DNA of 64,000 nt from Thermoplasmatales archaeon SG8-52-3 (GTDB taxonomy: Archaea; Thermoplasmatota; E2; DHVEG-1): assembly GCA_001595915.1 (NCBI GenBank), contig LSSG01000032.1, forward strand, positions 23,142 through 87,141. Direction: 5' to 3'. The notes under the pieces are model-generated. The model saw only the letters and a program-made list of their open reading frames with translations. It was not told the origin of the DNA and did not search any database. This document shows, one piece after another, positions 28,840 to 53,384 of the stretch; position 1 is the first letter of the stretch; every line of letters starts with the position of its first letter. The position numbers and the translations under genes were made by a program.

Positions 28840-30630
28840 TTAAAAATAGAGATAAAAAATTTTTTTAAGAATTTGAAATCTATCAAGTAAGTTTAAGAAA
28901 GGATTGAAATTTGTTGCTCTATTTCTAAGTGTTTTTAGATAAACTGGTATTATCTCCCAATCTGTAGAATTATCAATATTTTTAATTCTTATAGAACCAA
29001 TAAATTCTTCATTTTTTTTATTAGGTGAAACAACACTTACTTCTACGGTTACTACCCCATCCTCAGGAGTTAGATTTATACCTGATGAAGGATTAATTGA
29101 CCATGTCCCCCAATTAGGTAAAAATTCAATTTCCCAATTAAGTAATGAATCAGAATCACCAATATTCTGGACCTGGAAATAACCATTTGCTATCTCCCCT
29201 GCCTTAATCTCAGTCCATTTTAACAAACCCTCGCAATCAAGATTTGCCCCTATTTCTGGATTACCTGGCGGATAATGCTGTATTGTGAAAACATCATTAG
29301 TAACAAGATTTGGAAATGGATTTTCGTATTGCCAAATTGTTTCTTTATTTGGTGTTACTTCAAAAAAAGTACCTGAAGGACCATTACAAATTAAGGTATT
29401 TCCATTGTATAATCTTTGAGCACCAGATATATGACTTGCAAAAAAGTCAGGGGGATTTTCAGCAGTATATATCCAAACTTGTTCTTCTGGACCATAAGGC
29501 AAACCAGGTTCCAGATAATAAAAACCATTGATATCTACTGGTGGCTCTATTTCATCTACAGAAGAATATTTTGGTTCAGGACGAGTATTACCATTACTAA
29601 AAACAAGAATATTTCCTTGACCTGGATAATTTTTTTCTATCCATCGTGCATCATGTTGATCAAATAGCTTTTGATCTGATTTATTACCTGCATAATATAC
29701 TCTTGGATTGCCCCATCGATATAAAAGATCGCCACCTTTTCCATATCTACCTCCGGTGTGTCCAGTTGATTCCTCAATAGTAGTACTATGGTCAATCACC
29801 CAAATCTCACTAAAACCTCTAACACTCAAAAGTATCTGGTCAAATTCTTTGTTATAATCTATAGAATTTATATGATTCCAGTCACCTGGAACTGGAATTT
29901 GCGGATAATTTATATTAATTAATTCAGGATGATTTGATACATTACCAAAGTTATCCTTTGATGGATCAAAATCCTGAATTAAATGATCCCACACATGCCA
30001 TTCCCATACAATATTACCACCAAAAGGTTCTGTTGGTTCAACTTCAATTATAAAGTCTGGCCAAAGATAATTAAACATTAAATAATTTGGATTTCTTCCT
30101 GCTTCAATAGCCTCATCCCGAGTTTTATACTCCCATGCAGTCATAAGAATATTTCCATTGGGCAATATTTCAATATCATGATGCAAGCAATAAACTTCAT
30201 TAGAATATTCAAATTCCCATAGCAGTGATCCATTCCAGCTGAATTTCTCAACACGTCCAGTAATTCCACCACCCCAAAATGTTGGACTTGTAAAAGGAAG
30301 ATCAGAGCGTAAAATATCTCCATTATCTAATAAATAAACAGACATTCCTTGAATATAATCACTTTTCCACATTTGAAGGATTTCTTCATTGTTATTAATT
30401 AAATATGACATTTTTGAATATTCTGGAGTATACAGAATATATCCGTCAAAACTATCATTATTTAAATTTTCATAAACCATTTTCGCAGAAATATTAGTTG
30501 ATGAATTTGAAAAACTTGATAAGAAGAAAATAAATATTATTCCGATAGTTAAAAATTTCAATATTTTATTCATTAATACAAATTTATCTCCCTTTTTTAT
30601 ATTTATCAATAGTAATATAATTATTAACAA
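28840..30630 (-). CDS. Secreted arylsulfotransferase (ASST)-like beta-propeller protein with a C-terminal beta-sandwich domain and shared tail motif
   Basis: 596 aa; the start is likely ATG 30573 (MNKILKFLTIGIIF...). HHDIEILPNGN, WEWHVWDHL and NHINSIDY are ASST-family hallmarks. It ends ...NFNPFLNLLDRFQILKKIFYLYF. Confidence 0.65.
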   Translation of the reverse strand: MLIIILLLINIKKGDKFVLMNKILKFLTIGIIFIFFLSSFSNSSTNISAKMVYENLNNDSFDGYILYTPEYSKMSYLINNNEEILQMWKSDYIQGMSVYLLDNGDILRSDLPFTSPTFWGGGITGRVEKFSWNGSLLWEFEYSNEVYCLHHDIEILPNGNILMTAWEYKTRDEAIEAGRNPNYLMFNYLWPDFIIEVEPTEPFGGNIVWEWHVWDHLIQDFDPSKDNFGNVSNHPELININYPQIPVPGDWNHINSIDYNKEFDQILLSVRGFSEIWVIDHSTTIEESTGHTGGRYGKGGDLLYRWGNPRVYYAGNKSDQKLFDQHDARWIEKNYPGQGNILVFSNGNTRPEPKYSSVDEIEPPVDINGFYYLEPGLPYGPEEQVWIYTAENPPDFFASHISGAQRLYNGNTLICNGPSGTFFEVTPNKETIWQYENPFPNLVTNDVFTIQHYPPGNPEIGANLDCEGLLKWTEIKAGEIANGYFQVQNIGDSDSLLNWEIEFLPNWGTWSINPSSGINLTPEDGVVTVEVSVVSPNKKNEEFIGSIRIKNIDNSTDWEIIPVYLKTLRNRATNFNPFLNLLDRFQILKKIFYLYF

Positions 30631-30672
30631 TCTATTAATTAAAATAATTTTCTACTAATAATTGATATAATC

Positions 30673-31071
30673 TTAATTTAACTTATTAATCAATATCATA
30701 ATTTCGCTAACATGTTTTTTAATAATTTTTGGTCTTCTATAAATTGATGCAAAACTTTGAAGATTTTTAAGTACTAATAGTAAATTTTCTTTTGTTGGAT
30801 TGTTAAAATCTGCCTTAATCTTGACAAATATATCCTGTACTAATTCCTTTACATGTGATTTTTTCATTTTTTCAAATTTTTTCTCGGGCGGACGACCAAA
30901 AGTTTCTCTTGCTAGTTCAAGGACATTACAATGTGCCTCATAAAAGCATTGAATCATTGCATCTCTAACCAAGATTGGTGTAAAATTTTTTGTAATATCT
31001 ACACCATAAATTATATTTTTATTTTTAGCAGTTCTTTTACCTTCTCTCACAATAACCCCAATATTATACAA
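30673..31071 (-). CDS. Hypothetical protein
   Basis: 132 aa, soluble and helical-looking, with no motif recognised. Codon usage is consistent with its neighbours. Confidence 0.35.
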   Translation of the reverse strand: MYNIGVIVREGKRTAKNKNIIYGVDITKNFTPILVRDAMIQCFYEAHCNVLELARETFGRPPEKKFEKMKKSHVKELVQDIFVKIKADFNNPTKENLLLVLKNLQSFASIYRRPKIIKKHVSEIMILINKLN

Positions 31072-31171
31072 TTTAAATGGCTATATAAAAGTTTCATATT
31101 ACTTTTGTTTATTTAACATCAGAAATATCTAAGATTAAATATAAGTACAATAGATAGTATATATAGTTTCA

Positions 31172-31504
31172 ATGAAGCGTACTCCCTGTGAATACTTATT
31201 GTGGAATTTACTCCCTGCTATTAGAAGTGAAATTGCTAGAAGTATGGTTAATGATTTTGGATTAAATCAAAAAGAAGCAGCAGAGAAATTAGAAATCCAA
31301 CCTGCAGCAGTGTGTATGTATCTTTCTGACAAACGTGGAAAATCAAACATCAATGATAAATCTTTCTTAAAAGAAATTAAGATTTCTGCTGAAAAAATTA
31401 TTAAAAATCAAAATACAGATATTGTTAATGAAACTTGCAGACTCTGTAAAATTATTAGAGCTAAAGGTTTGTTTCCAAACTACCAAATTAAAATTAATGA
31501 TTAA
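31172..31504 (+). CDS. Small helix-turn-helix transcriptional regulator
   Basis: 110 aa. NQKEAAEKLEIQPAAVCMYLSDKRG is an HTH (helix, turn, recognition helix) segment, and there is a C-terminal CRLC pair. Confidence 0.45.
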   Translation: MKRTPCEYLLWNLLPAIRSEIARSMVNDFGLNQKEAAEKLEIQPAAVCMYLSDKRGKSNINDKSFLKEIKISAEKIIKNQNTDIVNETCRLCKIIRAKGLFPNYQIKIND

Positions 31505-31542
31505 AGATTTGGACAACACTTTTTAAAATTAAATTATCAATA

Positions 31543-31764
31543 TTATTTTTTCAGTAAAACAAATACAGCAATAAAATGAGCAATAATTCCTATACCCCAA
31601 CCTATCGTTGTTGTAATAGGCCAAGCAAAACCTTCTCCGTCTGTAATATACCACCATTGTGCATATATTCCAATATTTACTAATATGTAAATTATAAAAT
31701 GAATATAAAAACCTCTTTTTTCTTTAACAATTGTTTTTTCTCCTATCTTTTCTTCATTTAGCAT
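31543..31764 (-). CDS. 2TM-domain membrane protein
   Basis: 73 aa. KRGFYIHFIIYILVNIGIYAQWW...GWGIGIIAHFIAVF matches the 2TM-domain pattern (two Trp/His-rich helices). Confidence 0.5.
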   Translation of the reverse strand: MLNEEKIGEKTIVKEKRGFYIHFIIYILVNIGIYAQWWYITDGEGFAWPITTTIGWGIGIIAHFIAVFVLLKK

Positions 31765-32202
31765 AATTTATTAATTTTTTATTGCTATTTGAGTGTTACT
31801 ATATTTTTAATAAAAATAACATCTGAAAAATAGTTTTTTAAAAAATTATTTTTATAACTAAGTTACAAACTGTTTAAATACTATTAAACATAATTATACA
31901 AAGGTTCTAGTTGATGTAAAAGATTTTACAGATAAAATTAGTTTTTCTGAAATATTTAATTTGGTATCAAGGAATTTACCAAACATTATTAATTATAAAA
32001 TAAACAAGATAGCAATAGTTGATATTAAAGGTCATAGTTTTAATAAAGATTTTTTTGAAAATATTGTATTAAATAGAGGTCATAATGTAAAAATTTTTAC
32101 AGATATAAATAATGCAATTCAGTGGCTTTCTTAAATTTTTTTGTTTTAAATTATTTTTAACAAAATCTATATAATATCTTAATATATTCTCCCATTTAAG
32201 AG

Positions 32203-32628
32203 GTGGTTTCCACGAAAGATATTGTAGAGGAGTTTGGCATTAATGCAGGGAAGGTATGGAATGAGTTAAAAACTCATGGACCTCTAAATGAAAAAGAATT
32301 ATTAAAAAATACAAAACTTGCAAAGAATAATCTATATGCAGCGATAGGTTGGCTTGCCAGAGAAAATAAAATTCAATTAGAAAATAATTTGTATGTTCTT
32401 GGTGACACAAATTTAACAGAAGATATTGGTAAAAGTGCTGGTAAAATATGGCAAACAATTGAAAAACATAAAGAAATTGACGTATCATCTATTCCTAAGC
32501 TTGCAAAATTAAAAGAAATGAAAGTATATAATGCACTAGGTTGGCTTGCAAGAGAAGATAAAATTCAAGTTAAAAAGGGACTTTTAAATACAATGTACTA
32601 TAAAGTTCAATTAAAAAACTACCCTTAA
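32203..32628 (+). CDS. Tandem winged-helix protein (two DUF2582-like wHTH repeats)
   Basis: 141 aa with a GTG start. It has two ~65-aa repeats: GINAGKVWNELKTHGPLNEKELLKNTKL...AIGWLARENKIQL and GKSAGKIWQTIEKHKEIDVSSIPKLAKL...ALGWLAREDKIQV. Confidence 0.55.
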   Translation: MVSTKDIVEEFGINAGKVWNELKTHGPLNEKELLKNTKLAKNNLYAAIGWLARENKIQLENNLYVLGDTNLTEDIGKSAGKIWQTIEKHKEIDVSSIPKLAKLKEMKVYNALGWLAREDKIQVKKGLLNTMYYKVQLKNYP

Positions 32629-33086: not shown

Positions 33087-35171
33087 ATGAAAATCTTAAA
33101 AGTTAGAAATGGAATTGTAATAATTATAGTTATTTTGTTTATAGCATCTAGTGTATTTTCAATCGGTAGTGCAAATTTAATAAAAAATGATATAATTTAT
33201 AATAAAAATATTGATTTTCTCTCTTTTCAAGTAAATCCAATATTTACAAAAGAAACCTATATGGTTGAAATGAGGGATGGTATTCATCTTGCAACAGATG
33301 TATATCTACCAGATAATATCTCTTCGCCTCATGGTGCAATTCTAGTACGTACACCTTATAATAAGAACGGTTCTGGTATGGGGGGATGGGCTAACAAAGG
33401 TTGGCCATCTATTGTTCAGGATACAAGAGGACGTTTTCAATCAGAGGGAATTGATACAATATTTAGAGATGCTCATACCGATGGACCTGATACCTTAGAA
33501 TGGATTTCTAGTCAGAATTGGTCAAATGGAAAAGTAGCCACAATAGGGGGGTCAGCTACAGGTATAGTTCAGTATTTAATGGCAGGTGCTGGTCCTGATC
33601 AACTTAAATGCCAATATATAGGAGCGGCGACTCCAAATTTATATACTACAGTTTATCCTGGTGGACAGTTTAGAAAAAATATGTTAGAAGCATGGCTTCA
33701 GAACCAAGGAAGTACATATGTTTTACCAGAATTATGGGCTCATGAGAATTATTCTTTAGAGTATTGGACAAATGTATCTTTAGAGGATAACTGGCAGGAT
33801 GTAAATGTTCCAGCAGTGCATCTCGGTGGATGGTATGATTGTTTTTGTCAGGGACTTATTGATGGTTTTATGGGATATCAATATGATGGTGGAACTGGTG
33901 CTGCTGGGAAGTCAAAGCTAATTGTTGGTCCATGGACGCATGCATTTTTTGGAGAGAGATTGCAGGGTGAACTTTTATATCCAGAAAATGCAAAAGACAC
34001 CTTTTCAGCTGAATATTGGGATGAAATACTTGAACAATACATATTAGGTGAATCTAATGACTTTGAAAATAGACCAAATGTTGTATATTATGTAATGGGA
34101 GATGTGACAAATAGCGAAGCACTTGGAAACTTCTGGAGATATACCGATAATTGGCCTCCAGAATATATTGAAGATGAATGGTATTTTCATGAAAATAAGA
34201 TTTTATCATTGGATAGTCCAGGAAGCTACAGTCCTTTAACTTATAGTTATAACCCAACAAACCCTGTCCCAACAAAAGGTGGAACAAATCTATATCCTCT
34301 TGCTCCAACCTGGGCAGGTCCTTATGATCAAAGATCAGTTGAAAATAGAGCCGATGTATTATTATTTACTAGTGATGTTTTAACAGAACCTTATGAAGCT
34401 ACTGGTCCAATAAAAGCAAGACTATATGTTTCATCAGATTGTCCAGATACTGATTTTACAGTAAAGCTCACAGATGTTTATCCAGATGGAAGATCAATGC
34501 TTATAACAGACGGAATACTACGAATGAGAAACCGCAATGGATGTGATCATTGGGAGTTTATGGAACCTGGTCAAGTATATGAAGTGGAAGTTGATTTGTG
34601 GAGTACCTCCTATGTTTGGAACACTGGTCATAAGATAAGAGTAGCAGTATCATCATCAAATTATCCAAGATTCTTAGCAAATCCTAATACCAAAGATGCA
34701 ATGAACCAAAATACAGAATCAAATATTGCAGAAAACACATTGTATCTTGATTCCTCTCATCCTTCTTGTATAATTCTCCCTCGTTATAATGACAATTATG
34801 CCCCTATTAAACCAACAATTTCTGGACCTACGAGAGGTGTACCTGGAATAAATTATTCATTTATTTTCAAAACAATAGATCCAGAAGGTGAAGATGTATA
34901 CTTGTATATCGATTGGGGAGATGGCACAAATACAAATTGGTTAGGACCATATAGTTCAGGTGAAGAAGTAACTCTTGAACATACTTGGAGTTCAACAAAA
35001 ATCTATACAATTAAAGCAAAGGCAAAAGATATAAATCAAGATGAATGTGAATTTAGCAGTCATAATATAAATATCCCAAGAACGAGATTGTTTAATAAAT
35101 TGGTTCTCACAAGGTTATTTGAGCAATTTCCAAATATCTTTACTATAATTAGATATCTATTGGGATTATAA
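33087..35171 (+). CDS. Secreted CocE/NonD-family (S15 X-Pro dipeptidyl-peptidase-like) hydrolase with a C-terminal PKD-like domain and shared tail motif
   Basis: 694 aa with a signal/anchor. YMVEMRDGIHLATDVYLP...ILVRTPYNK is the CocE/NonD N-terminus. A PKD-like module contains YIDWGDGT. It ends ...LFEQFPNIFTIIRYLLGL. Confidence 0.75.
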   Translation: MKILKVRNGIVIIIVILFIASSVFSIGSANLIKNDIIYNKNIDFLSFQVNPIFTKETYMVEMRDGIHLATDVYLPDNISSPHGAILVRTPYNKNGSGMGGWANKGWPSIVQDTRGRFQSEGIDTIFRDAHTDGPDTLEWISSQNWSNGKVATIGGSATGIVQYLMAGAGPDQLKCQYIGAATPNLYTTVYPGGQFRKNMLEAWLQNQGSTYVLPELWAHENYSLEYWTNVSLEDNWQDVNVPAVHLGGWYDCFCQGLIDGFMGYQYDGGTGAAGKSKLIVGPWTHAFFGERLQGELLYPENAKDTFSAEYWDEILEQYILGESNDFENRPNVVYYVMGDVTNSEALGNFWRYTDNWPPEYIEDEWYFHENKILSLDSPGSYSPLTYSYNPTNPVPTKGGTNLYPLAPTWAGPYDQRSVENRADVLLFTSDVLTEPYEATGPIKARLYVSSDCPDTDFTVKLTDVYPDGRSMLITDGILRMRNRNGCDHWEFMEPGQVYEVEVDLWSTSYVWNTGHKIRVAVSSSNYPRFLANPNTKDAMNQNTESNIAENTLYLDSSHPSCIILPRYNDNYAPIKPTISGPTRGVPGINYSFIFKTIDPEGEDVYLYIDWGDGTNTNWLGPYSSGEEVTLEHTWSSTKIYTIKAKAKDINQDECEFSSHNINIPRTRLFNKLVLTRLFEQFPNIFTIIRYLLGL

Positions 35172-36103: not shown

Positions 36104-36104
36104 T

Positions 36105-37082: not shown

Positions 37083-37217
37083 TTTACTTCCTTTGTTTAC
37101 TCAAAAGTAAATAATTTCATACTATTTTAGAATTTTGATAAAAAATACAGATATTGGATTTTATATTTGATATAGTCTATATAAACTCAAAAATTAGATA
37201 AAATTGGAGGAAAAAAA

Positions 37218-38098: not shown

Positions 38099-39364
38099 AT
38101 GAAAAAGAATATAACTAGAATTTTTTTATCAATATTTCTTTTTATTTTACTATTAGGTATTGGATTTTCAAGCTCTATTGGAGAAGCATTTTCATATAAA
38201 TTAAATAAAACTGTTAATGGAAATATTCTTTATGTGGGTGGAACAGGTCCTGGTAACTATTCAGATATTCAAGAGGCAATAGATAATGCAGAGAATGGTG
38301 ACACAATTTTTGTGTATATTGGAGATTACCCTGCTGATATTGTAGTTGACAAATCTATAATACTTATTGGAGAAAATAGAGAAAAAACAATTATTCAGGA
38401 CGCAAGTGATGGAATATTTGTTTTTGCAGATAAAGTGACAATTACAAATTTCACAATTACACATTGTGGAGGTTTTTGGGATAAGGCTGGGATATTAATC
38501 CGCTCAAATGATAATACAATTTGCTATAATAATATTGTAAACAATGGAGTTTTGAATGGAATATATCTAGAATTTGCTTCTTTTAATAATGTTTTTAGCA
38601 ACCTAATAGAAAATTGTCAATACAATGGTATTAAACTTGCTTATTCAAATTATAATAATATCAGTGGAAATATGATATCAACAAACAATGGAATGGGGAT
38701 TATCTTTCATGATTCATCTAACAATAATATTTTATTAAATACCATATCGCAAAGCTATTGGGGTGGTATTCAGATTTATGATAATTCTAATAACAACTTA
38801 TTATACCATAATAATTTAATAGAAAATGAAATTGATAACGGATATGATATATGTGGTAATGTCTGGGATAATGGAGCAGAGGGAAACTACTGGGATGATT
38901 ACTCAGGAGTTGATAATGACGGTGATGGAATAGGTGATACTCCCTACATAATTGATGGTAACACAACCAATGATAATTATCCCTTAATGAACATATATGA
39001 AATACCTTCAACTCCAACAATAAATGGTCCAATAAACGGTAAAACTGATGAAATATATGATTACACCTTTTCTACAACTGATCCAAATAGTGATGATATT
39101 TTTTACTATATTGAATGGGGAGATAATTCAAATTCGGGTTGGATTGGTCCTTATCAGTCAGGCTCAGAAATAGAACTTCAACATTCTTGGTCTGAAAAGG
39201 GTACAAAATTAATAACTGCAAGAGCAAAGGATACTAATGGGTTATTAGGATTTTCAAATACAATTGAGGTCTATATACCAAAAAACAATGTAAATTATAA
39301 CTTATTATGCAAATGGTTTTTTGAAAGGTTTTTATTGTTCGAAAAATTATTATTGTTATTTTAA
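38099..39364 (+). CDS. Secreted right-handed beta-helix (NosD/pectate-lyase-like) protein with a PKD-like domain and shared tail motif
   Basis: 421 aa with a signal. It has repeated NN(I/V)xxN turns (ICYNNIVNN, NNVFSNLIEN, NNISGNMIS, NNILLNTIS, NNLLYHNNLIEN), a PKD-like module containing YIEWGDNS, and ends ...WFFERFLLFEKLLLLF. Confidence 0.65.
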   Translation: MKKNITRIFLSIFLFILLLGIGFSSSIGEAFSYKLNKTVNGNILYVGGTGPGNYSDIQEAIDNAENGDTIFVYIGDYPADIVVDKSIILIGENREKTIIQDASDGIFVFADKVTITNFTITHCGGFWDKAGILIRSNDNTICYNNIVNNGVLNGIYLEFASFNNVFSNLIENCQYNGIKLAYSNYNNISGNMISTNNGMGIIFHDSSNNNILLNTISQSYWGGIQIYDNSNNNLLYHNNLIENEIDNGYDICGNVWDNGAEGNYWDDYSGVDNDGDGIGDTPYIIDGNTTNDNYPLMNIYEIPSTPTINGPINGKTDEIYDYTFSTTDPNSDDIFYYIEWGDNSNSGWIGPYQSGSEIELQHSWSEKGTKLITARAKDTNGLLGFSNTIEVYIPKNNVNYNLLCKWFFERFLLFEKLLLLF

Positions 39365-39375: not shown

Positions 39376-40689
39376 TTAGTTTTCAATTCTTCTCTTATTT
39401 GTATAAGTCATACCTTGAAATGAAATAGAGGTAATTGTTATAAGTGGAAAAAGTCCTTTATTCACATTTCTTCCTATTATCCTTAAAATATTTGAAGGAT
39501 TATAAAATCCATTATACATCTTTTGTATACCATTCATCAAATCATCAGCTGTTAGATTTTTTGGCTTGTAAACAACATTTTTACCGTCATATTTGCTCCA
39601 ATCCTTAATTACAATTCGATTTTGTCTTTCATATTCATCAAATAATGGTGTCCCTGGAAATGGAGTTAATATATGAAACTCTGCTTTATCAATATCAGAT
39701 TTACAAATGAAATCAAGGGTACTATCAAAAATATCAGTTTTATCAGCATCAAAACCAAACATGAATGAACCTTCAACGTTCATACCAAAGTTATGAATTT
39801 TATTTATAACAGATAAATATTGTTCAGAAACATTTGTTTTTTTTCCAATTGAATCAAGAGACTTTTGAGATATTGAATCAAAACCTATTGTCCAAGAAAT
39901 GCAACCAGCCTCTTGTGCAAATCTTAAAAGTTCTTCATCCTTAAATAAAATATTTGCATTTCCATAACAATAAAACTTTTTACCTAAATCTTTCATATTT
40001 TTAAACAATTCTTTTGTATAATTAGTATTAATTGTTAAAGATGCATCACTAAAAAGTATATACTTTTGAGGAATTTTTTGAATTTCATTTATCACTTGAT
40101 CAATAGGTCTAACCCTAAACACTCTACGTCCGGGACTATGAGAAATCGCACAGAAGTTACAACCATGTGGACATCCTCTGGTAGCTTCTATTGCTACAGC
40201 AGAATTGATTCCTTTTTGCTTTATTCTTCCATTCCCATAATTTGGTAAAAGAGAAAGATCGACTGGTTTTTCTTGTCTATATATTTGTTTTAACTTATCT
40301 TCCTCAATATCTTTAAGTAACTGTGGCCAAAGCTCTTCAGCCTCCCCGATAACTATACTGTCAGCATGTTGTTTTGCTTCTTCTGGAAGAGCAGAAGGGT
40401 GCCAACCACCTAGAACAACCTTTTTTCCTCTTTTTCTAAAATTTTCAGATATCTCATATGCTTTTAGAGCTTGATTCGTCATTACAGATATCCCAATTAA
40501 ATCGTAGTTCTTTTCGTAATCAATATTTTCTAATCTTTCATCTATAATCTCAATCGAATTTTTTTCAGGAGTCATATTTGTAAGAGCCTTAAAAGCAGGA
40601 ATTATTGGATTTGAAAAAATACTAAAAAATTTAACAATAAATGAAGGTAAGGTCTTTACAGGATTTGGGTATATTAATAATATTTTCAT
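39376..40689 (-). CDS. B12-binding-domain radical SAM protein
   Basis: 437 aa with an N-terminal cobalamin-binding-like Rossmann region followed by EATRGCPHGCNFCAIS (the CxxxCxxC radical-SAM cluster motif). Confidence 0.8.
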   Translation of the reverse strand: MKILLIYPNPVKTLPSFIVKFFSIFSNPIIPAFKALTNMTPEKNSIEIIDERLENIDYEKNYDLIGISVMTNQALKAYEISENFRKRGKKVVLGGWHPSALPEEAKQHADSIVIGEAEELWPQLLKDIEEDKLKQIYRQEKPVDLSLLPNYGNGRIKQKGINSAVAIEATRGCPHGCNFCAISHSPGRRVFRVRPIDQVINEIQKIPQKYILFSDASLTINTNYTKELFKNMKDLGKKFYCYGNANILFKDEELLRFAQEAGCISWTIGFDSISQKSLDSIGKKTNVSEQYLSVINKIHNFGMNVEGSFMFGFDADKTDIFDSTLDFICKSDIDKAEFHILTPFPGTPLFDEYERQNRIVIKDWSKYDGKNVVYKPKNLTADDLMNGIQKMYNGFYNPSNILRIIGRNVNKGLFPLITITSISFQGMTYTNKRRIEN

Positions 40690-40819: not shown

Positions 40820-42262
40820 TTGGGGAATTATATGTTTAATAAAATACAAAAAAGAATTTTGTTTACATTATTTACAGCCTCATTATTTATATTTAGTGTT
40901 GGTGCTAGTCCAACAGATAATGAGATGTCATTTGAAATAAATGGGCTTCAAGACCTTGACCCACTGGTCGATCTTGAAGTAACTGTGGAGATACAAGCAA
41001 TAAGATCTTTACAAAAATTTGAATATCCAAATCCAAAAACATTAGAGGCAATAGATTGGTTCAGCGATCCAGATTTTTTTGTTAAGGTCATAATTAATGA
41101 TCAAGAATTTGTAAGTGATATATGGTATGATACAAAATATATTTACAATCCTGATTTTTCCCCAACTCTTGATGTATCTGATGAGGAAGAGTTTGTTAAT
41201 ATAAAAATACAGTTGTATGATTGGAACGCTTTTGGTAATGTACTGTGTGACTTAAGTGCTAATGGTAAGGATGTAGAACTAACCTATAGCCTAAAAACAG
41301 GACATTGGTCTGGTGGAGACTTTCTAGAGGATTCGAGCGGATATGGTAGATTAAATGGATGTGCAGATGGTAGTATGTATAAACGTCAAAGAGATTGTGA
41401 ACTTTGGTTTAATATCTATCAAAATGATTTTGATGGGGATGGAATCCCTTACTGGACAGAGGTAAATGAATATGATACGGATCCATTGGTAGATAATACT
41501 GGTGAGGATTCAGATAAGGATGATGTTCCTATAGAATGGGAATGGAAATGGAATTATGATCCATTTAAGAAAGATAATCATTACTATTTAGACCCTGATG
41601 ATGATGGATTAGACAACCTAGAAGAGTATTTTGTCTCCAAATGGGGTTCTGATCCTTATAGAGCTGATGTTTTCATAGAGCTTGACTATATGGAGGAAAG
41701 TCCAGATGGTGTAAGCAGTGTTTTACCTGAGGGAGCAGATGAACTTCTCAGTACTGCATTTAATCGATTTGATAAGGTTTTCCATTTAGATGAGGGAGAA
41801 ATGGGTGGCGGTGGAGAAATAATACCATTTGATGATTATATTGGAGACCGTGATCTTGATAAGGTCTATGATGAGTATTTCCTTCATTATGATGATAATA
41901 ATTGGCGTAGAGGTGTTTTTAGATATAGTTTGATAATTTATGATCCAGGCAGAGCTGGATATAATTTTCGACGTGGTGCTTTTGTACTTAGTAGTAATCG
42001 TATAAAAGAAAAACCAACACCAGATATTCCAAGAACACGAGCTGTCGCATGGGCTAGTGTTTATATGCATGAGATGGGACATACATTTGATTTTCATAAC
42101 CCTGGAGTTGATAATCCAAACTTTTGGCAATATGTGAATTATAAAAGTTGTATGCTCTATCGCTATACATATAGACTAGTAGATTACTCTGATGGATCAC
42201 GTATAAATGATTTTAATGATTGGGAAGATATGGATCTTAAACATTTTCAAAGAGAATGGTAG
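40820..42262 (+). CDS. Secreted putative zinc metalloprotease with thrombospondin-type-3-like calcium-binding repeats
   Basis: The start is likely ATG 40832. It has a signal, Asp-rich repeats DFDGDGIPYWTEVNEYDTDP and DPDDDGLDNLEEY, and the HExxH motif in VYMHEMGHTFDF. Confidence 0.6.
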   Translation: MGNYMFNKIQKRILFTLFTASLFIFSVGASPTDNEMSFEINGLQDLDPLVDLEVTVEIQAIRSLQKFEYPNPKTLEAIDWFSDPDFFVKVIINDQEFVSDIWYDTKYIYNPDFSPTLDVSDEEEFVNIKIQLYDWNAFGNVLCDLSANGKDVELTYSLKTGHWSGGDFLEDSSGYGRLNGCADGSMYKRQRDCELWFNIYQNDFDGDGIPYWTEVNEYDTDPLVDNTGEDSDKDDVPIEWEWKWNYDPFKKDNHYYLDPDDDGLDNLEEYFVSKWGSDPYRADVFIELDYMEESPDGVSSVLPEGADELLSTAFNRFDKVFHLDEGEMGGGGEIIPFDDYIGDRDLDKVYDEYFLHYDDNNWRRGVFRYSLIIYDPGRAGYNFRRGAFVLSSNRIKEKPTPDIPRTRAVAWASVYMHEMGHTFDFHNPGVDNPNFWQYVNYKSCMLYRYTYRLVDYSDGSRINDFNDWEDMDLKHFQREW

Positions 42263-42333: not shown

Positions 42334-42732
42334 TTATTTTCTAATTCTATAGCATATCATAATTATAGTAATTAGGCTAGCAATTGCTAAAATTATTAAT
42401 ACCGGGTGTTTTTCAATATCATTACTCCCATCTCTATTTAATTGATTCCCTAAGATAACCAGAGAATCCTTATATTCCTCCTCGGTATCTTTGAAATCTT
42501 CTTCCAAATCAATGGAAGATGTAATTTTGTCCTCACCGCCTTCATCTTTCTCAAATTTATTTTTTAAATTTTTATTTTGTGTAACAATTAGTGGTGCTTC
42601 AATTCCTTCTTTATTATCAATTATGTCAGTTTTTGATAGACTATCTTCTCTTGCAGTAGCAATAATGACAGATGAATAAAAAATGATTAATATTAAAAAT
42701 AAAACTATGCTCTTTCTATTAAAATTTTTCAT
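42334..42732 (-). CDS. Acidic type-I membrane protein (N-terminal signal, C-terminal TM)
   Basis: 132 aa with a signal, a Glu/Asp/Lys-rich ectodomain, and a C-terminal helix VLIILAIASLITIIMICY followed by RIRK. Confidence 0.4.
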   Translation of the reverse strand: MKNFNRKSIVLFLILIIFYSSVIIATAREDSLSKTDIIDNKEGIEAPLIVTQNKNLKNKFEKDEGGEDKITSSIDLEEDFKDTEEEYKDSLVILGNQLNRDGSNDIEKHPVLIILAIASLITIIMICYRIRK

Positions 42733-42832: not shown

Positions 42833-43840
42833 ATGATTACTTGGAAATCATTTTTGAAAAATGATTCAATAAATTGGTTATTGGAAAATAACAACCCTTC
42901 TGTTAGATATTTAACTTTAATGGATATTCTTAATAAATCTAATAAAAATTCTGAGGTTATTGAATCAAAAAAGAAAATAATGGAATCAGGATTGATTCAA
43001 AAAATTCTCTCAAAACAAAATTCTAAAGGTTATTGGTTCGAACCTGAAAATTTCTATATTAAAAGAAAATATAAGGGGACAGTTTGGAACTTAATAATAT
43101 TGGCTGAAATAGGTGCCGATGGAAATGATAAAAGAATAAAAAAAGCTTGTGAGTTTATTTTAAATAATTCTCAAAATAAAGAAAGTGGAGGATTTGCGTA
43201 TAGTGCTTTAAAAAGTGGAGGTGGAGCAGATTCAAAAGTGTTACCATGTTTATCAGGAAATATGGTATGGTCCTTAATCTGTTTTGGTTATATTGATGAT
43301 TTTAGAGTTCAAAAGGGGATTGAATGGATAACAAATTATCAAAGGTTTGATGATGGTATACAAGAATTACCTGAGAATTGGCCTTATAAAAAACATATAA
43401 ATTGTTTTGGAAAGCATTCTTGTCATATGGGAGTAGTTAAATCATTGAAAGCACTAGCAGAAATTCCTGAAGAAAAAAGATCAAAAATTGTCAAAATAAC
43501 AATTAAAAATGGTGTCGAATATTTACTAAAACATCATATTTACAAAAAAAGTCATGACTTAAATAAAGTCTCAAAACCTAGTTGGTTACAACTTAGTTTT
43601 CCACATATGTATCAAACAGACATATTAGAAATACTTGATATTTTAACTAGACTTTGGAATAAAGACAGACGGATGCAAGATGCAATTGATATTTTAATAT
43701 CAAAACAAAATGAAAATGGAACCTGGAATCTTGAAAGAACCTTTAATGGTCGTTTTATAACAAATATTGAAACTAAAGGAAAACCGAGTAAATGGATAAC
43801 TTTGAACGCTCTAAGGGTTTTGAAAAGGTATTATATCTAA
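42833..43840 (+). CDS. Alpha/alpha-toroid protein (prenyltransferase / squalene-oxidase-repeat-like)
   Basis: 335 aa with periodic motifs Q..KGYW, ESGGFAY, PCLSGNMVW, YQTDILE and QNENGTWN spaced as in terpenoid-cyclase/prenyltransferase repeats. No signal peptide. Confidence 0.45.
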   Translation: MITWKSFLKNDSINWLLENNNPSVRYLTLMDILNKSNKNSEVIESKKKIMESGLIQKILSKQNSKGYWFEPENFYIKRKYKGTVWNLIILAEIGADGNDKRIKKACEFILNNSQNKESGGFAYSALKSGGGADSKVLPCLSGNMVWSLICFGYIDDFRVQKGIEWITNYQRFDDGIQELPENWPYKKHINCFGKHSCHMGVVKSLKALAEIPEEKRSKIVKITIKNGVEYLLKHHIYKKSHDLNKVSKPSWLQLSFPHMYQTDILEILDILTRLWNKDRRMQDAIDILISKQNENGTWNLERTFNGRFITNIETKGKPSKWITLNALRVLKRYYI

Positions 43841-43922: not shown

Positions 43923-44801
43923 GTGAAACATATGAAGAAAATCTTACTGGGTAGTATTATAGCATTAATGGTATTAATTCCAGTTGTAAGTGCTATAGAT
44001 GTCTCAATTGAAAATAAAACTGAAAAACCAATATCTATAATGCAGGATTTCACACATACTGTTTTTGTAGAATATGGATCTTTGACAACCTGTCCACCTT
44101 GTGTAACAGCATCTGCTCAATTATATAGTATTTATAATTCTGGTGATCTCGATTTTCATTATGCTACATTGGTTTGGGATGTTGCTAATGGAAATGTTCG
44201 TAGTAGACTCACAGAATTAGAAGTTGTTGGTGTACCAGATGTATTTTTTGATGGTGGATATAAGAGAATAATTGGTGGTCAAGGATCTGAAGCACCATAT
44301 AGAGGCGCAATTACACTAGCAGGAGAAAGAGAAGTCCCAGATATTGACATAGCATTAGATGTAACCTGGCTTGGTGGCGGAAAACTTAAAATCGAAGCGA
44401 CTGTCACAAACAATGAAGTTGAAGAGTTTAATGGTAATATTAGAACATATGTAGTTGAAAAAGAATCCAGGTGGAATGATTATTCTGGTAAACCATATCA
44501 TTATGCAGCTTTAGATATTCCAATAGATAAGAGTTTAGCAGTTGTTAACACTGAAGCCAAACCTCTTGGTGAATCTTATACATTTTCTAAAACCTGGAGA
44601 GGTTCAATTTATGGTTTTGGGGATATCACACAAGATAATACAATGGTAATAGTTGCAGTTTATGATAAGGAATCAGATTATGTTGTTCAAACAGCTGCAG
44701 CAAATCCAACCGGTAAAATTGGAAATTATAGACCAATAAATATTTTGTTTTATAAGATATTTGAACGATTTCAAGTACTAGAACAAATCCTAAACCTATA
44801 A
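43923..44801 (+). CDS. Secreted thioredoxin-like (CPPC) protein with shared tail motif
   Basis: The start is likely ATG 43932 (MKKILLGSIIALMVLIPVVSA). VEYGSLTTCPPCVTA carries a CxxC redox motif in a thioredoxin-like context. It ends ...ILFYKIFERFQVLEQILNL. Confidence 0.5.
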   Translation: MKHMKKILLGSIIALMVLIPVVSAIDVSIENKTEKPISIMQDFTHTVFVEYGSLTTCPPCVTASAQLYSIYNSGDLDFHYATLVWDVANGNVRSRLTELEVVGVPDVFFDGGYKRIIGGQGSEAPYRGAITLAGEREVPDIDIALDVTWLGGGKLKIEATVTNNEVEEFNGNIRTYVVEKESRWNDYSGKPYHYAALDIPIDKSLAVVNTEAKPLGESYTFSKTWRGSIYGFGDITQDNTMVIVAVYDKESDYVVQTAAANPTGKIGNYRPINILFYKIFERFQVLEQILNL

Positions 44802-47992: not shown

Positions 47993-47997
47993 ATTAT

Positions 47998-49356: not shown

Positions 49357-49453
49357 AATCCGAGAATCCTTTTTTGCTTAATGTTTTTTTCTAAATGGAT
49401 TGAGTTTATAAATAAAAAGATATTATCTTAATGTAAATGCAGAGGGAGAGTAA

Positions 49454-49930
49454 ATGAATAATGAAGGTTATCCAAATCCATCAGGCTGGAGAATATCTTT
49501 ATCAATTGCAGTGGGTATAGGCTGGTTAATTTTTGTAATAATATGGCTGGCATTTTATGCAGGAGATTATACTCTTTATAGAAATATTGCAATCATCATT
49601 ATTTCAATTCTTGTAATATTCTTGATACTTGGGATTTCATGGGCATCATGGGGATTAAAATATATGCCAAAAGAAGGTAAAGAAATGATGAAAACTGAAG
49701 GATTTAGAAGTAGAATAATTGTATCGATTGTAATTCCTTTTTTGTTGATAATATTTATGATATATTGGTTTTATTTTCCTGCAGAAGATTTTGATGGCTA
49801 TCAAAATATTGCAATATTTTTAGTATCTCTATTAATCGTTGGAGGATTACTTGCTGGTATATGGGCTCCATGGGGGATGAAACACAGTAAAGATTTTGAA
49901 AAATTTGATTGTAAAGAAAAAAAAGATTAG
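49454..49930 (+). CDS. 4-TM membrane protein built from an internal 2-TM duplication
   Basis: 158 aa. The two halves align (GWRISLSIAVGIGWLIFVIIWLAFYAGDYTLYRNIAIIIISILVIFLILGISWASWGLKYMPKEG versus GFRSRIIVSIVIPFLLIIFMIYWFYFPAEDFDGYQNIAIFLVSLLIVGGLLAGIWAPWGMKHSKD). Confidence 0.45.
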   Translation: MNNEGYPNPSGWRISLSIAVGIGWLIFVIIWLAFYAGDYTLYRNIAIIIISILVIFLILGISWASWGLKYMPKEGKEMMKTEGFRSRIIVSIVIPFLLIIFMIYWFYFPAEDFDGYQNIAIFLVSLLIVGGLLAGIWAPWGMKHSKDFEKFDCKEKKD

Positions 49931-49944
49931 TATAAAATCATATT

Positions 49945-50676
49945 TTATTTAAATAATTCAACTTTCAAACTTTCAAGATTAATTCCTTGATACTGTCTAT
50001 TTGAAATCTCTTTATCTTCATCTATAATTTTATAGTTAAAACCTGCATTTAAAATAATATTAATATAATCTTCTTTAAGTAAAGCACCTCCAACACATCC
50101 AGCAATGAGTTCATCATCATTTTTTTGTTCTTCAGATAAATGACTTAATAAAACAATATCTGAAACATACATTCTTCCATCTTTTTTCAAAACTCTATAT
50201 GCTTCTTTGAAAACTTTCAGCTTATTGGGTGCAAGATTAATTACACAATTACTAATAATTACATCAAAATATTCATTTTTAAAAGGTAGATTATCAATAT
50301 CTCCTTTTCTGAATTCAACATTTTGATAGTTATATTTATCTGCAAGTTCTTTTGATTTTTTTATCATTTCATCAGTGAAGTCAATACCAACTACTTTACC
50401 GGTATTACCAACTTTTTTTGATGCTATAAATGCATCAAATCCCGCCCCTGAACCTAAATCCAATACTATATCTCCTTCTTTAATATTTGAAATTGCTACT
50501 GGATTACCACAACCAAGACCGAGATTTGCATCAGATGCTATTGAAATCTCCTCATTTGAATAGCCAATAGACCGTGCAATATCAACTTCATTTTGCTGTC
50601 CACAACAGCTACAACTTTTTTGTGCAACTTTACTATAGCAATTTTTTACAATTTTCTTAATATCTTTTTCTTTCAT
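49945..50676 (-). CDS. arsM: ArsM-like SAM-dependent methyltransferase (arsenite methyltransferase family)
   Basis: An N-terminal Cys cluster SCSCCG, motif I VLDLGSGAGFDAF, VVGIDFTDEM and SNCVINLAPNK are typical of ArsM. I place the start at ATG 50676, which forms an ATGA overlap with the folP stop; the track start at 50697 would overlap folP by 25 nt. Confidence 0.7.
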   Translation of the reverse strand: MKEKDIKKIVKNCYSKVAQKSCSCCGQQNEVDIARSIGYSNEEISIASDANLGLGCGNPVAISNIKEGDIVLDLGSGAGFDAFIASKKVGNTGKVVGIDFTDEMIKKSKELADKYNYQNVEFRKGDIDNLPFKNEYFDVIISNCVINLAPNKLKVFKEAYRVLKKDGRMYVSDIVLLSHLSEEQKNDDELIAGCVGGALLKEDYINIILNAGFNYKIIDEDKEISNRQYQGINLESLKVELFK

Positions 50677-51524
50677 GTTATCTGTCTCACAATACAATCA
50701 ATCATTTCTATACAACGTCTTGTTTCTTTTACATCATGGACCCTTATTATATCTGCACCATTCAATACTGCAACACAAGCAGCAGCTAAACTACCCTCTA
50801 ACCGATCTGTAATGGGTAATTGTTTCTTATATCCACAAACATTTCCTATAAAAGTCTTTCGAGAAGGACCTACTAGAATTGGATAACCAAGACTTTTAAA
50901 TTCCCCTAATCTAGCTAATATCTCGCAATTGTCCTCGATACCCTTACCAGTTCTTTTTCCAAAACCAAGCCCTGGATCAATGATTATATTTTCTTTTCTT
51001 ATTTCATTAAACATAGCATATTCAGCACGTTCTTTTAAGAAATAATATATCTCCATTACTATGTCATCATAATTTAGATTTTTCTGCATATTTCTTGGAT
51101 TTCCTTTCATATGCATCAAACATATAGGAACATCGTATTTAGCCACAATATTTACAAGTTTATTATCTCCTCTTAGAGCAGTTATATCATTTATCATACT
51201 TACACCAAGATCCAAAGCTTTCATTGCAACATCAGACTTGTAAGTGTCAATTGATATTGGGATTTTTATATTATCAACAAGTTCTTCAATTACTGGAATT
51301 ATTCTTTTTATTTCTTCATCTTTTGATATACTATCTGCACCAGGTCTTGTGGATTCTCCACCTATATCAATAATATCTGCTCCTTCTTTTTCCATTTTAA
51401 CTGCATGAGCAATGGCATCCTCTTTTTTTAAAAATTTTTTTCCATCAGAAAATGAATCTGGAGTAACATTCAAGATTCCCATTATAATAGTTTTTTTTCT
51501 GAATTCAATTTTTTGTCTTGGCAT
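50673..51524 (-). CDS. folP: Dihydropteroate synthase
   Basis: 283 aa with IMGILNVTPDSFSDG, DIGGESTRPGA, MINDI and DPGLGFGK pterin-binding motifs. Confidence 0.9.
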   Translation of the reverse strand: MPRQKIEFRKKTIIMGILNVTPDSFSDGKKFLKKEDAIAHAVKMEKEGADIIDIGGESTRPGADSISKDEEIKRIIPVIEELVDNIKIPISIDTYKSDVAMKALDLGVSMINDITALRGDNKLVNIVAKYDVPICLMHMKGNPRNMQKNLNYDDIVMEIYYFLKERAEYAMFNEIRKENIIIDPGLGFGKRTGKGIEDNCEILARLGEFKSLGYPILVGPSRKTFIGNVCGYKKQLPITDRLEGSLAAACVAVLNGADIIRVHDVKETRRCIEMIDCIVRQIT

Positions 51525-51526
51525 TC

Positions 51527-51892
51527 CTAATTTACTTCCCTCAGTAAAATATCTAGTTTGTTTGCGATATTTTTTAACCTTGAATAATGTCTTTTTAGTT
51601 TAATTACAAGTTCTTTTAGTTGTTTAAGATTTCCTATTATTAAAATATCGCCAGTTTTTTCGTGCAACTCAAAGGTATTTTTTGGAACAGCAACTTCACC
51701 ACCTATAGATAACATATCCTGTTTAATAATAATGGCATCCTGAAGAACTACATTTTCAAGTTTGATAACCTTTAAAATAGCCTTTGGAGCCATTATTTCA
51801 ATACTTTCAGGATCACTACCAATTTTACTAATTTCTTCTCTAGCATTTTGAAGTGTTTTTACTTCTATTATCCTTAGATTTTGTTCTGTCAC
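51527..51892 (-). CDS. Hypothetical protein co-transcribed with folP
   Basis: 121 aa, 2-nt gap to folP, no motif recognised. Confidence 0.4.
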   Translation of the reverse strand: MTEQNLRIIEVKTLQNAREEISKIGSDPESIEIMAPKAILKVIKLENVVLQDAIIIKQDMLSIGGEVAVPKNTFELHEKTGDILIIGNLKQLKELVIKLKRHYSRLKNIANKLDILLREVN

Positions 51893-51920
51893 GAAAATTA
51901 AGTAATAAAATCGTTCTATA

Positions 51921-52130
51921 TTATTTTTGACCTCTTTTGACTTTTAAAGGTAAATAAAGAATATAAAAAATACAGAAAAACTCAATATTTGCTGCAATAA
52001 TTATAAGAATAGGATCTTTTGGCCAAGCACTAATAGGAGAAAGATGGTATAAGGATAATATTATTGTGATTATCAATGCGATGAGTATATAGATTATTAT
52101 TAATTGTTTTTCACTTCGATTTTCAAACAT
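51921..52130 (-). CDS. Small 2-TM membrane protein
   Basis: 69 aa with two hydrophobic helices and a basic C-terminus. Confidence 0.35.
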   Translation of the reverse strand: MFENRSEKQLIIIYILIALIITIILSLYHLSPISAWPKDPILIIIAANIEFFCIFYILYLPLKVKRGQK

Positions 52131-52292
52131 TAATTTTTATATATAAGCGCTATTCTTTTTAGATTTTTGGTAATTTTTATCTATTTATTATTTTTTTTAT
52201 TATTTTTTATTAATTTTAATTAAAATATCTATATTTTTAAAAAAAGTTTATATCCTTGAACATATATTACAATAGTACGAAGGGGGAGCAAT

Positions 52293-53384
52293 ATGGAAAA
52301 AAATAAAAAATATACTATAAAAGGCGCAGGCGTTTTGCTGATTGCAGCAGCCCTCATATTAACATCCGTGGCTGTAACAGCAGATACAGTAAAAGAAAAA
52401 ATGAACCCAGCATTTTTAAGATCAACTGGTCCAAGTATTTCAATTGAAAACAGCCCAGCAACAACAGGTGCTGTAATTTTTGAACAATTACCGTACGAAC
52501 CAGAGGAATCCTGGATTTTTATGACTAGTGCTGCTAGTGCAGGATACCGTGTATGGGATGAATACTGGGAACTAAACGAACAGATTTGTGATATTCACTG
52601 GTGGGGTCTTAGCCTAGTTTATCCATGGGCAGCATGTGATCCTAGTGGAATGGTCTTTGAAATCATATTCTGGGATGCATTACTTGGAAATCCAGTATGT
52701 ACATACCAGGTAACACCAACAGGAGTATCAACTGGAAAATTCTACAGTGGATTTGAAATGTTCTATTGGGAAGCTATACTTGATCCATGTTGTGATTTAA
52801 TTCCAAATGGTTGGGTATCAATTCAAAGTGTACAAAGTCCAAATAATTGTTGGTTATTATGGGCAGGATCAGACGAAGGTGATCTATACTGTTATCAGGA
52901 AGGATCAACCACTCCAGATCAAGTTGACGATGCAGCATTCCAATTAACAGCAGAAGGAGAACCAGCATATCCAAAAATAATTTGTGACCCAGTAGGAATG
53001 AACTTCGGAAAAGCAGGTCCTGGAGCAACTGTTACTGGACAAATATATGTTTGTAACGGTGGAGATCCTGGATCATACTTAGACTGGTATGTTGACACAG
53101 CAGCTGTTCCAACATGGGGAACCTGGACATTTACACCTGCCGGTGGCACTGGTGTAGCAGAGGGTGACTGTGTTGTTGTTGATGTAACTTGTGTTGTAAC
53201 TGATACAACTGGTACATACAATGGTGAAATAACTGTTTACAATGCAAAAGATTCAACTGACTACTGTAAAATTGATACTTCAGTTGAAGTACCAAGAGCC
53301 AGATCACATAACGCATTGATGTGGAACTTATTCCAGCAATTCCCAGCGCTATACCAAATTGTAAAAATAATATTTGGGGCTTAA
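52293..53384 (+). CDS. Secreted/surface hypothetical protein with shared tail motif, compositionally atypical
   Basis: 363 aa with the signal GAGVLLIAAALILTSVAVTADT and several Cys pairs. The C-terminal beta-sandwich-like part is rich in T/G/V. It ends ...ALMWNLFQQFPALYQIVKIIFGA. The gene is visibly GC-richer than its flanks: three long antisense ORFs appear only here. Confidence 0.55.
   Translation: MEKNKKYTIKGAGVLLIAAALILTSVAVTADTVKEKMNPAFLRSTGPSISIENSPATTGAVIFEQLPYEPEESWIFMTSAASAGYRVWDEYWELNEQICDIHWWGLSLVYPWAACDPSGMVFEIIFWDALLGNPVCTYQVTPTGVSTGKFYSGFEMFYWEAILDPCCDLIPNGWVSIQSVQSPNNCWLLWAGSDEGDLYCYQEGSTTPDQVDDAAFQLTAEGEPAYPKIICDPVGMNFGKAGPGATVTGQIYVCNGGDPGSYLDWYVDTAAVPTWGTWTFTPAGGTGVAEGDCVVVDVTCVVTDTTGTYNGEITVYNAKDSTDYCKIDTSVEVPRARSHNALMWNLFQQFPALYQIVKIIFGA

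Follow-up and report, generated by a model that had tools for sequence, protein, structure and literature searches.

The locus examined here raises the question of why five exported proteins whose bodies are otherwise unrelated should all end in the same short peptide. The proteins are encoded in a stretch of 64,000 nucleotides (hereafter, the window) from Thermoplasmatales archaeon SG8-52-3 (GenBank assembly GCA_001595915.1, contig LSSG01000032.1, positions 23,142 to 87,141 of the forward strand), where the five tails lie within 25 kb. An initial annotation of this DNA had proposed that the shared tail is a candidate new C-terminal sorting or anchoring signal, an interpretation that the present analysis supports, the sorting or anchoring function itself being one that we infer. 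Profile comparison shows that the tails of the window have diverged from a C-terminal domain of approximately 31 residues, previously uncurated and here named the FERFP tail, of which they represent five copies. C-terminal sorting and anchoring tags are already known as such; what appears to be new, as far as sequence comparison can tell, is a tail that fails two defining features of the tripartite signals and matches no curated model.

A query consisting of a PKD domain plus tail returned 53 proteins, approximately 38 of which carried a much sharper motif at their very end. A tail profile (A5; 34 sequences, 31 positions) was then used in an exhaustive HMMER search of 1.84 billion (1.84e9) representative proteins, which recovered 738 clusters at E<=1e-3 (best E 6e-10), in agreement with the large family that the initial annotation had anticipated. 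As had also been expected of such a scan, the match lies at the extreme C-terminus in all 150 of the 150 proteins listed, which range in length from 30 to 1212 amino acids, and signal peptides occur on carriers whose domains are unrelated to one another. In 124 of 147 matches (84%) the envelope reaches the final residue, and in the other 23 it stops one to six residues short of it. The family consensus opens with P-[KR]-N-[KR] or P-x-S-Y, continues with approximately eight variable residues and closes with [FW]-L-F-E-R-F-P-[NH]-A-F-P-I-L-R-x-L-L-G-[YL] and the stop codon. Column conservation reaches 99% at P19, 98% at F22, 96% at P23 and L25, 92% at R26, 89% at G30 and F18, and 83% at E16, while Pro occupies the first position of every aligned database tail (100%), so that the lead-in P-[RK]-x-[RN] first read from the window proteins proved to be real. 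Compared with the core originally described, [LF][FL][EDQ][RQ]F, the consensus of the family extends further and is far more sharply defined, and the window copies are diverged from it.

The same picture was obtained from metagenomes, where the pattern [FL][EQ][RQ]FP[NH][AI]FP was found in more than 600 JGI stretches, 529 of which were confirmed. Eighty of these metagenome loci were retrieved, amounting to 585 kb and 113 tails; a stop codon lies at most six residues beyond the tail in 108 of the 113, at least two tails occur in 23 of the 80 loci, and up to four occur in a single locus of at most 20 kb. A few tails carry C-terminal extensions of 11-21 residues. In one orthologous group (L027 96-1064, L033 1128-2510 and L086 4263-4982) the tail is internal, the order being signal peptide, optional PKD domain, tail and DUF4382 (PF14321), and this tail-DUF4382 module is common to the three different N-terminal architectures found at these loci.

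It could be asked whether a resemblance of this kind arises by chance, from AT-rich low-complexity composition or from a conserved DNA repeat, given that the window has a GC content of approximately 30% and that three of its five tails are marginal (E 0.016-0.35) against an independent profile. This explanation, to which we attach practically no probability, is refuted by the 738 database clusters with all 150 listed matches at C-termini, by the positions of the stop codons, by the codon entropy, and by the ranking of the five tails ahead of all others among 855 six-frame segments, each of the five being the end of an open reading frame (ORF) with a signal peptide. Across the first, second and third codon positions of the tail core the entropy is 0.69, 0.24 and 1.31 bits, respectively, in loci that span 28-51% GC, and synonymous Phe and Pro codons are used freely. 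The high third-position entropy, far above that of the other two positions, together with the free use of synonymous codons, indicates that selection acts on the peptide and not on a DNA repeat.

Within the window, the ORF listing and direct translation both confirmed that the five ORFs end in the tails quoted by the initial annotation, with TAA directly after each, and a signal-peptide-like N-terminal segment was found in five of five carriers, signal peptides being called here from hydrophobic N-terminal segments (a hydrophobicity heuristic). The bodies are unrelated, as had been stated, with three assigned to different families (PF05935, TIGR00976 and PF05048) and two lacking any Pfam or NCBIfam family. 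The first carrier (28840-30630, minus strand) comprises a signal peptide, an arylsulfotransferase-like (ASST) beta-propeller (Pfam PF05935, 9.6e-23), an Ig-like domain and the tail RNRATNFNPFLNLLDRFQILKKIFYLYF (28843-28926, minus strand), which is followed by TAA and is the most diverged of the five copies (E=3.2e-6 with the seeded profile A5; E=0.35 and rank 5 of 855 with the independent profile). The second carrier (33087-35171, plus strand) has a signal peptide, a CocE/NonD (S15) hydrolase (TIGR00976, 8.3e-103; PF08530, PF02129), a PKD domain and the tail (PR)TRLFNKLVLTRLFEQFPNIFTIIRYLLGL before TAA (35079-35168, plus strand), which is the closest of the window copies to the family consensus (E=1.7e-9 with the independent profile, envelope 664-694 of 694); the range previously given for this tail, 35085-35168, translates to RLFNKLVLTRLFEQFPNIFTIIRYLLGL and then TAA. 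Since the TIGR00976 profile stops near residue 566 of this 694-residue protein, the PKD domain and tail appear to be an add-on. In the third carrier (38099-39364, plus strand), a signal peptide is followed by a NosD-type parallel beta-helix (PF05048, 9.9e-26; PF13229), a PKD domain and the tail NVNYNLLCKWFFERFLLFEKLLLLF with its TAA (39287-39361, plus strand; E=0.016 with the independent profile); its PKD domain plus tail aligns with that of the second carrier at 37% identity, and its 'ERF-LLFEKLL' flavour is also seen in loci L045 and L046. The fourth (43923-44801, plus strand) is a CPPC-containing signal-peptide protein outside the Pfam and NCBIfam families, ending in NYRPINILFYKIFERFQVLEQILNL and TAA (44724-44798, plus strand; E=2.9e-7 with the seeded and E=0.017 with the independent profile). 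The fifth (52293-53384, plus strand; 363 amino acids) joins a signal peptide to a Cys-rich protein of unknown family, an Ig-like domain and the tail RARSHNALMWNLFQQFPALYQIVKIIFGA, again before TAA (53295-53381, plus strand; E=1.5e-3 with the independent profile), and its ortholog at L004 16235-17380 also bears the tail. Altogether, approximately five of the nine predicted exported, non-polytopic proteins of the window are tail carriers.

When all six frames of the window were searched with a hidden Markov model (HMM) built from the five window tails, nothing but these five was matched, a test that is circular. With the profile made from 147 independent database tails, the five were again the top five of the 855 segments, all at ORF ends; one of them is strongly canonical and another significant, and the remaining three are marginal singly and convincing only jointly. 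Because the window tails still rank first at weaker E-values when an independent profile is used, the window carries a diverged flavour of a larger tail family.

The anatomy of the tail departs from that of a membrane-spanning segment. Over the last 30 residues, the highest-scoring Kyte-Doolittle window of 19 residues has a mean of 0.50 and a maximum of 1.05, and the last 22 residues contain 4.7 charged or His residues; both its polarity and its shortness prevent the tail from crossing a membrane, and it is not a transmembrane helix. A basic patch, P-[KR]-x-[KR], stands at its start and L-L-G-[YL] at its end. In an AlphaFold run with a 37-38-sequence alignment, a PKD sandwich (pLDDT approximately 97-98) led through a loop into a helix of 12 residues, which three residues at F-P-x separate from a second helix of 8 residues, with tail pLDDT values of 82-87 for a canonical tail and 75-89 for the CocE/NonD tail of the window (helix 98-109, break FPN, helix 113-120). 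According to this prediction, the basic lead-in gives way to an amphipathic helix (12 residues), and the shorter helix (8 residues) comes after the F-P-x break. Its hydrophobic moment (muH) is 0.38, against 0.22+-0.11 for shuffles, its Wimley-White interfacial dG is -2.6 kcal/mol, against +3.0 kcal/mol for internal windows (placing the tail in the top 7% or so), its aromatic content is 23% against 13%, and its net charge is +1.6.

The FERFP tail is a portable module that stands directly after the last folded domain, usually a PKD or Ig-like domain. PDB entry 4XED is the PKD domain of an M14-like peptidase from Thermoplasmatales archaeon SCGC AB-540-F20 (55% identity, root-mean-square deviation 0.5 Å), and its construct ends ...TLEVTMP, exactly where FERFP tails begin, so that the module preceding the tail has been solved and the tail itself is without a structure; a PDB sequence search with the tail profile returned noise only. 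The Ig/PKD-like domain that the initial annotation placed before the tail is supported by PKD-annotated relatives, by the AlphaFold models and by 4XED, but Pfam PKD was not detected at E<=0.01 in the window proteins.

The carriers point to an extracellular setting and to a particular lineage. A hydrophobic N-terminal signal is present in 71 of 88 full-length carriers, among which 55 Pfam families were identified, nearly all of extracellular module types; these include PKD (48), NosD/beta-helix (12), FG-GAP, PQQ propellers, metallophosphoesterase, CBM96 and BACON, as well as clostripain C11, cadherin-like, lectin-like and other domains. NCBI and JGI name the carriers only as 'PKD domain-containing protein' or 'hypothetical protein'; carriers that could be named include a C1A cysteine protease and an M12B reprolysin-like peptidase. 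By source, the named carriers belong to Thermoplasmatales archaeon SCGC AB-540-F20 (EMR74854.1), to SM1-50 (KYK22303.1) and to metagenome-assembled genomes (MAGs) labelled 'Thermoplasmata archaeon', the first two of which are Thermoprofundales (MBG-D) genomes. The FERFP tail marks Sec-exported proteins of sediment Thermoplasmatota, namely Thermoprofundales/MBG-D and their relatives. A Lokiarchaeal origin of the window is rejected, since every named carrier and every relative of the window's archaeosortase falls within the Thermoplasmatota; the source is an uncultured member of that phylum. The Thermoprofundales rank among the most widespread archaea of marine and estuarine sediments and are thought to live on detrital protein, which they would degrade with extracellular peptidases that bear PKD domains and are highly expressed (PMC6461988).

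A tag of this description invites comparison with the tripartite C-terminal sorting domains, for which Haft has set out criteria (bioRxiv 10.1101/2023.06.07.544157). Terminal position (criterion 1) is seen in the 124 of 147 matches that reach the final residue and in the metagenome set, where 108 of 113 tails lie within six residues of the stop codon; multiplicity (criterion 2) is seen in locus-level counts, with five tails in 25 kb and up to four in loci of at most 20 kb. Most carriers have a signal peptide (criterion 6; 71 of 88, and five of five in the window), and they are otherwise dissimilar (criterion 7; 55 Pfam families among 88 carriers, with unrelated bodies in the window). The existence of homologs elsewhere that lack the signal (criterion 8) is indicated, on limited evidence, by the CocE/NonD profile TIGR00976, which stops before the PKD domain and tail. 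Near-invariant residues (criterion 3) are P1, F18, P19, F22, P23, L25, R26 and G30, all of which except P1 lie in the middle or at the end of the domain and not at its start. A transmembrane helix (criterion 4) is absent, as judged from the Kyte-Doolittle mean of 0.50 and the AlphaFold helices of 12 and 8 residues, as are the two to five terminal basic residues of criterion 5, the basic patch being at the start of the tail. The earlier distinction between this tail and the classical tripartite signals, which rested on the lack of a transmembrane helix and of a terminal basic cluster, is therefore upheld.

Compared with individual members of that group (PGF-CTERM, PEF-CTERM, Loki-CTERM NF033507 and Heimdall-CTERM NF045529), the FERFP tail is alike in being approximately 25-31 residues long, in lying at the extreme C-terminus of signal-peptide proteins, in occurring in many copies per genome on unrelated surface proteins, and in the presence of ArtA, PssA and PssD in the same genomes. 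It is unlike them in having neither a hydrophobic segment of transmembrane length nor a terminal Arg/Lys cluster, with basic residues at the start instead, and in being conserved over approximately 18 positions rather than in a 3-residue motif abutting a transmembrane helix; there is also no HMM match. In NCBIfam release 20 and Pfam, no match was found at E<=10 for window or canonical sequences, whether whole proteins or isolated tails were used, and the cutoffs of TIGR04126, NF033507 and NF045529 were reached by none of the window tails, whole proteins or canonical tails, again with no match at E<=10. The proposed novelty therefore stands. The Lokiarchaeal sorting-domain model that the initial annotation mentioned does exist (NF033507), but it describes PGF, a transmembrane segment and an Arg cluster and has no match to the tails. 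The literature searches found no paper containing the tail motif strings, and nothing on archaeosortase in MBG-D/Thermoprofundales, on PGF-CTERM in taxa whose names begin with Thermoplasmat, on Loki-CTERM or on C-terminal amphipathic anchors in archaea.

A classical signal was nevertheless detected in the lineage by the same NCBIfam library, which serves as a positive control for the null FERFP result. This signal (PGF, a transmembrane segment and RRRHR) ends a 398-amino-acid protein encoded at L021 7059-8255 (minus strand) in a Thermoplasmatota MAG, 4 kb from an archaeosortase A (ArtA) gene. The protein scored 27.9 bits with Heimdall-CTERM (cutoff 24) and its isolated tail 23.4 with Loki-CTERM (cutoff 19.9), both remaining below the PGF_CTERM cutoff; the Asgard-named models thus also fit Thermoplasmatota proteins. 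In the window, a 132-amino-acid signal-peptide protein (42334-42732, minus strand) ends in ...EKHPVLIILAIASLITIIMICYRIRK, a transmembrane segment with a basic end that scored 11.8 with Loki-CTERM, below the threshold of 19.9, and this protein may be a membrane protein of type I or, alternatively, a sortase-type substrate of an atypical kind.

An ArtA gene is also present in the window at 59383-60312 (minus strand), as context and not as a demonstrated part of a tail system. Its product scores 105.3 bits with TIGR04125 (cutoff 75) and has seven hydrophobic segments, and its C193, R235 and H255 are invariant in 18 relatives. Directly downstream of artA lies a PssD-like archaetidylserine decarboxylase gene (58731-59381, minus strand; 194.5 bits with NF003685, cutoff 183, and 173 with NF038088, below its cutoff of 240), and the third gene of the operon encodes a PssA-like archaetidylserine synthase (58040-58750, minus strand; 102 and 97 bits with NF038087 and NF038086, below their cutoffs). 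The artA-pssD-pssA order of the window is kept in 18 of 19 Thermoplasmatota relatives (L004-L021 and L103), always adjoining an Mrp/Mbh-like antiporter and NuoH-like cluster (60373-63766 in the window). This synteny had been reported before for Methanosarcina, and the model in which PGF-CTERM proteins of Methanosarcina and Haloferax are anchored by a lipid was derived from it (PMC7157517). The relatives of the window ArtA, at 46-84% identity, all come from Thermoplasmatota MAGs. One homolog (P0293, 62% identity) is labelled 'archaeosortase A [Petrotogales bacterium]' at NCBI and probably derives from a mis-binned archaeal contig.

It is conceivable, but in our judgment unlikely, that the FERFP tail is a non-canonical ArtA signal, in which FERFP would be recognised at the membrane surface, the tail cut off and an archaetidylethanolamine-type lipid attached, as proposed for Haloferax PGF-CTERM. 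An ArtA above its curated cutoff with invariant Cys, Arg and His residues, the synteny described above, the co-occurrence of ArtA and tails on one contig (the window, L004 and L018) and the agreement of the tail with Haft's criteria 1, 2, 6 and 7 all argue for such a route. So does the count of approximately 120 FERFP tails against one classical PGF-type signal in 0.98 Mb of lineage DNA, but this sample is biased toward tails. There is also a precedent for ArtA processing of an internal signal (reference 12 of PMC7157517), to which the tail-DUF4382 fusions are a parallel. However, archaeosortase and exosortase signals generally have a transmembrane helix, which their motif abuts, and a terminal Arg cluster, both of which the tail lacks, and the protein at L021 implies that this enzyme family already has conventional substrates in the lineage. 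In addition, ArtA, PssA and PssD were all absent from the 80 tail neighbourhoods. A connection between ArtA and the tail is thus unproven in either direction, and it is weakened by the classical PGF-type substrate near a related ArtA.

The position of the tail is compatible with recognition of its free C-terminus by some other enzyme or receptor, such as a PDZ-type C-terminal processing protease, in which case it would be a removable latency or sorting peptide clipped after export. The match ends at the last residue in 84% of cases, the end is of the form hydrophobic-x-hydrophobic (L-G-Y, L-G-L or L-G-F), residue-level conservation is strong, and hydrolases and peptidases, proteins that commonly have latency peptides, make up many of the carriers. 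Approximately 2 kb downstream of one tail gene there is a small PDZ_2-domain gene (L105 12320-12634, plus strand), an anecdotal observation. Nevertheless, 16% of tails have one to six extra residues, a few have 11-21, and one family has a whole DUF4382 after the motif; no PDZ or processing-protease gene was found among the window proteins scanned, and none recurs in the 80 neighbourhoods. The fact that non-enzymes also bear the tail argues further against a latency peptide, and we regard a C-terminal processing signal as rather improbable.

Modules that tag many exoproteins for docking or sorting by one surface system are already known. Dockerins and the C-terminal domain of type IX secretion are folded modules of approximately 70-100 residues, whose partners are cohesins and the T9SS sortase PorU, respectively. 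The FERFP tail resembles both in being one C-terminal module carried by dozens of unrelated hydrolases and binding proteins, which implies a shared receptor or machinery, and is unlike them in its length of approximately 31 residues, its helical character, its archaeal distribution and its lack of a known partner. As an assembly tag, its helix-kink-helix units would bundle together, or with a scaffold, into multi-enzyme surface complexes that are cellulosome-like but built on a smaller module. This would fit the heptad-like spacing of hydrophobic positions in the two short helices, the many hydrolases and binding modules with the same tag in one genome, often in clustered genes, and the genome-specific tail subtypes described below, but the 80 tail neighbourhoods yielded no candidate for a scaffold, and we consider such assembly to have only a slim chance of being the explanation.

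The explanation that we favour, at a probability of roughly 45% and hence tentatively, is that the FERFP tail is a non-covalent cell-surface retention tag that acts after Sec export. The aromatic-rich, net-positive helix-kink-helix would lie against the cytoplasmic membrane at its outer face and/or dock non-covalently onto a conserved, lineage-specific surface partner, and exoenzymes would thereby be kept on the cell instead of being released. The tail would accordingly differ from PGF-CTERM in not being a membrane-spanning signal that is cut off and swapped for a lipid. A partial analogue is provided by PBP5 and PBP6 of Escherichia coli, Sec-exported proteins that are held peripherally by C-terminal amphipathic helices with no covalent modification. 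The tail carriers share with these the layout of exported, soluble domains whose final element, an amphipathic helix, is short and does not span the membrane; it would sit at the outer face of the cytoplasmic membrane. The PBP5/PBP6 anchor, however, is a single helix of low conservation that occurs in one enzyme family, whereas FERFP tails have a helix-kink-helix form, are near-invariant even at polar residues, are common to at least 55 domain families and have genome-specific subtypes. The conservation of polar positions (E16, R17, R26 and G30), together with these subtypes, argues for a protein partner. Tails on the same contig share a subtype, with an identity of 0.685 within contigs compared to 0.554 between contigs (3 of 2000 permutations reached 0.685), while the 100 residues upstream differ little (0.44 within and 0.39 between).

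Several observations weigh against surface retention of this kind. The amphipathicity and interfacial hydrophobicity of the tail are only moderate, and in no more than 14 of 88 carriers does the tail outrank every other window. Helices that bind lipid alone are not usually conserved at the level of residue identity, which makes a version based on the membrane alone weak; at the same time, no partner family recurs across the 80 tail neighbourhoods, and the comparison of subtypes by contig includes only 10 within-contig pairs. Finally, an intact lipid-anchoring ArtA operon is present in the same genomes as the tails, so that covalent processing is conceivable. The only ORF cluster that spans many loci (16 members in 13 loci; for example, L025 1108-1794, minus strand) was rejected as an apparent artefact, being antisense to a PKD/tail gene in the one example checked.

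Somewhat doubtful, in our estimation, is the broader proposal that the FERFP tail represents a new archaeal sorting system, whether as a tag without a transmembrane helix that is read at the membrane surface by ArtA or another enzyme or receptor, or as a device that docks dozens of exoenzymes into a cell-bound 'exoenzyme coat'. For the GlyGly-CTERM/rhombosortase and MYXO-CTERM/myxosortase systems, which unlike the FERFP tail are bacterial and tripartite, with a transmembrane helix and an Arg cluster, the cognate enzyme was found by co-occurrence and not by homology, and they provide a model for a FERFP partner search. An HMM seed (alignment A5 plus 147 database tails) makes such a search by phylogenetic profiling feasible.

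Several other genes of the window are interspersed with the tail genes or concern the cell envelope. Two signal-peptide proteins encoded among the tail genes (40820-42262 and 27129-28817, both plus strand) are without a tail; one of the two has a HEMGH metalloprotease-like motif and no Pfam family, and the other has CarboxypepD_reg repeats and Big_7. Also interspersed are genes at 39376-40689 (minus strand) and 42833-43840 (plus strand), which encode a B12-binding radical SAM enzyme and a cytoplasmic alpha-alpha toroid protein resembling prenyltransferases and squalene cyclases, respectively. A protein with DUF3887 and an S9-type peptidase domain (22626-23960, minus strand) has a signal peptide that ends in the lipobox-like LFSGC, which suggests a second, lipoprotein-type anchoring route in the same genome. 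Divergent paralogs with the lysyl-phosphatidylglycerol synthase transmembrane region (PF03706) are encoded at 580-1545 (minus strand) and 1705-2709 (plus strand), and these are possible membrane-lipid modifying or flippase proteins.

For the biology of these archaea, the tail matters in that it probably decides whether exported enzymes stay on the cell. It is carried by exoproteins of the MBG-D type, including C1A, C11 and M12B peptidases, CocE/NonD hydrolases and carbohydrate-binding modules, and the release or retention of such enzymes settles which organisms obtain the products of hydrolysis and affects how extracellular enzyme activity in sediments should be interpreted. The tail is conserved enough to serve as an annotation marker, and current pipelines miss it. 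A multi-copy tag that shares half of the criteria for sorting domains and has neither a transmembrane helix nor a basic cluster implies either that the substrate range of archaeosortases is extended or that a different principle of anchoring is at work. If a new sorting system is indeed involved, the extracellular peptidases of MBG-D would be tethered to the cell and not freely released.

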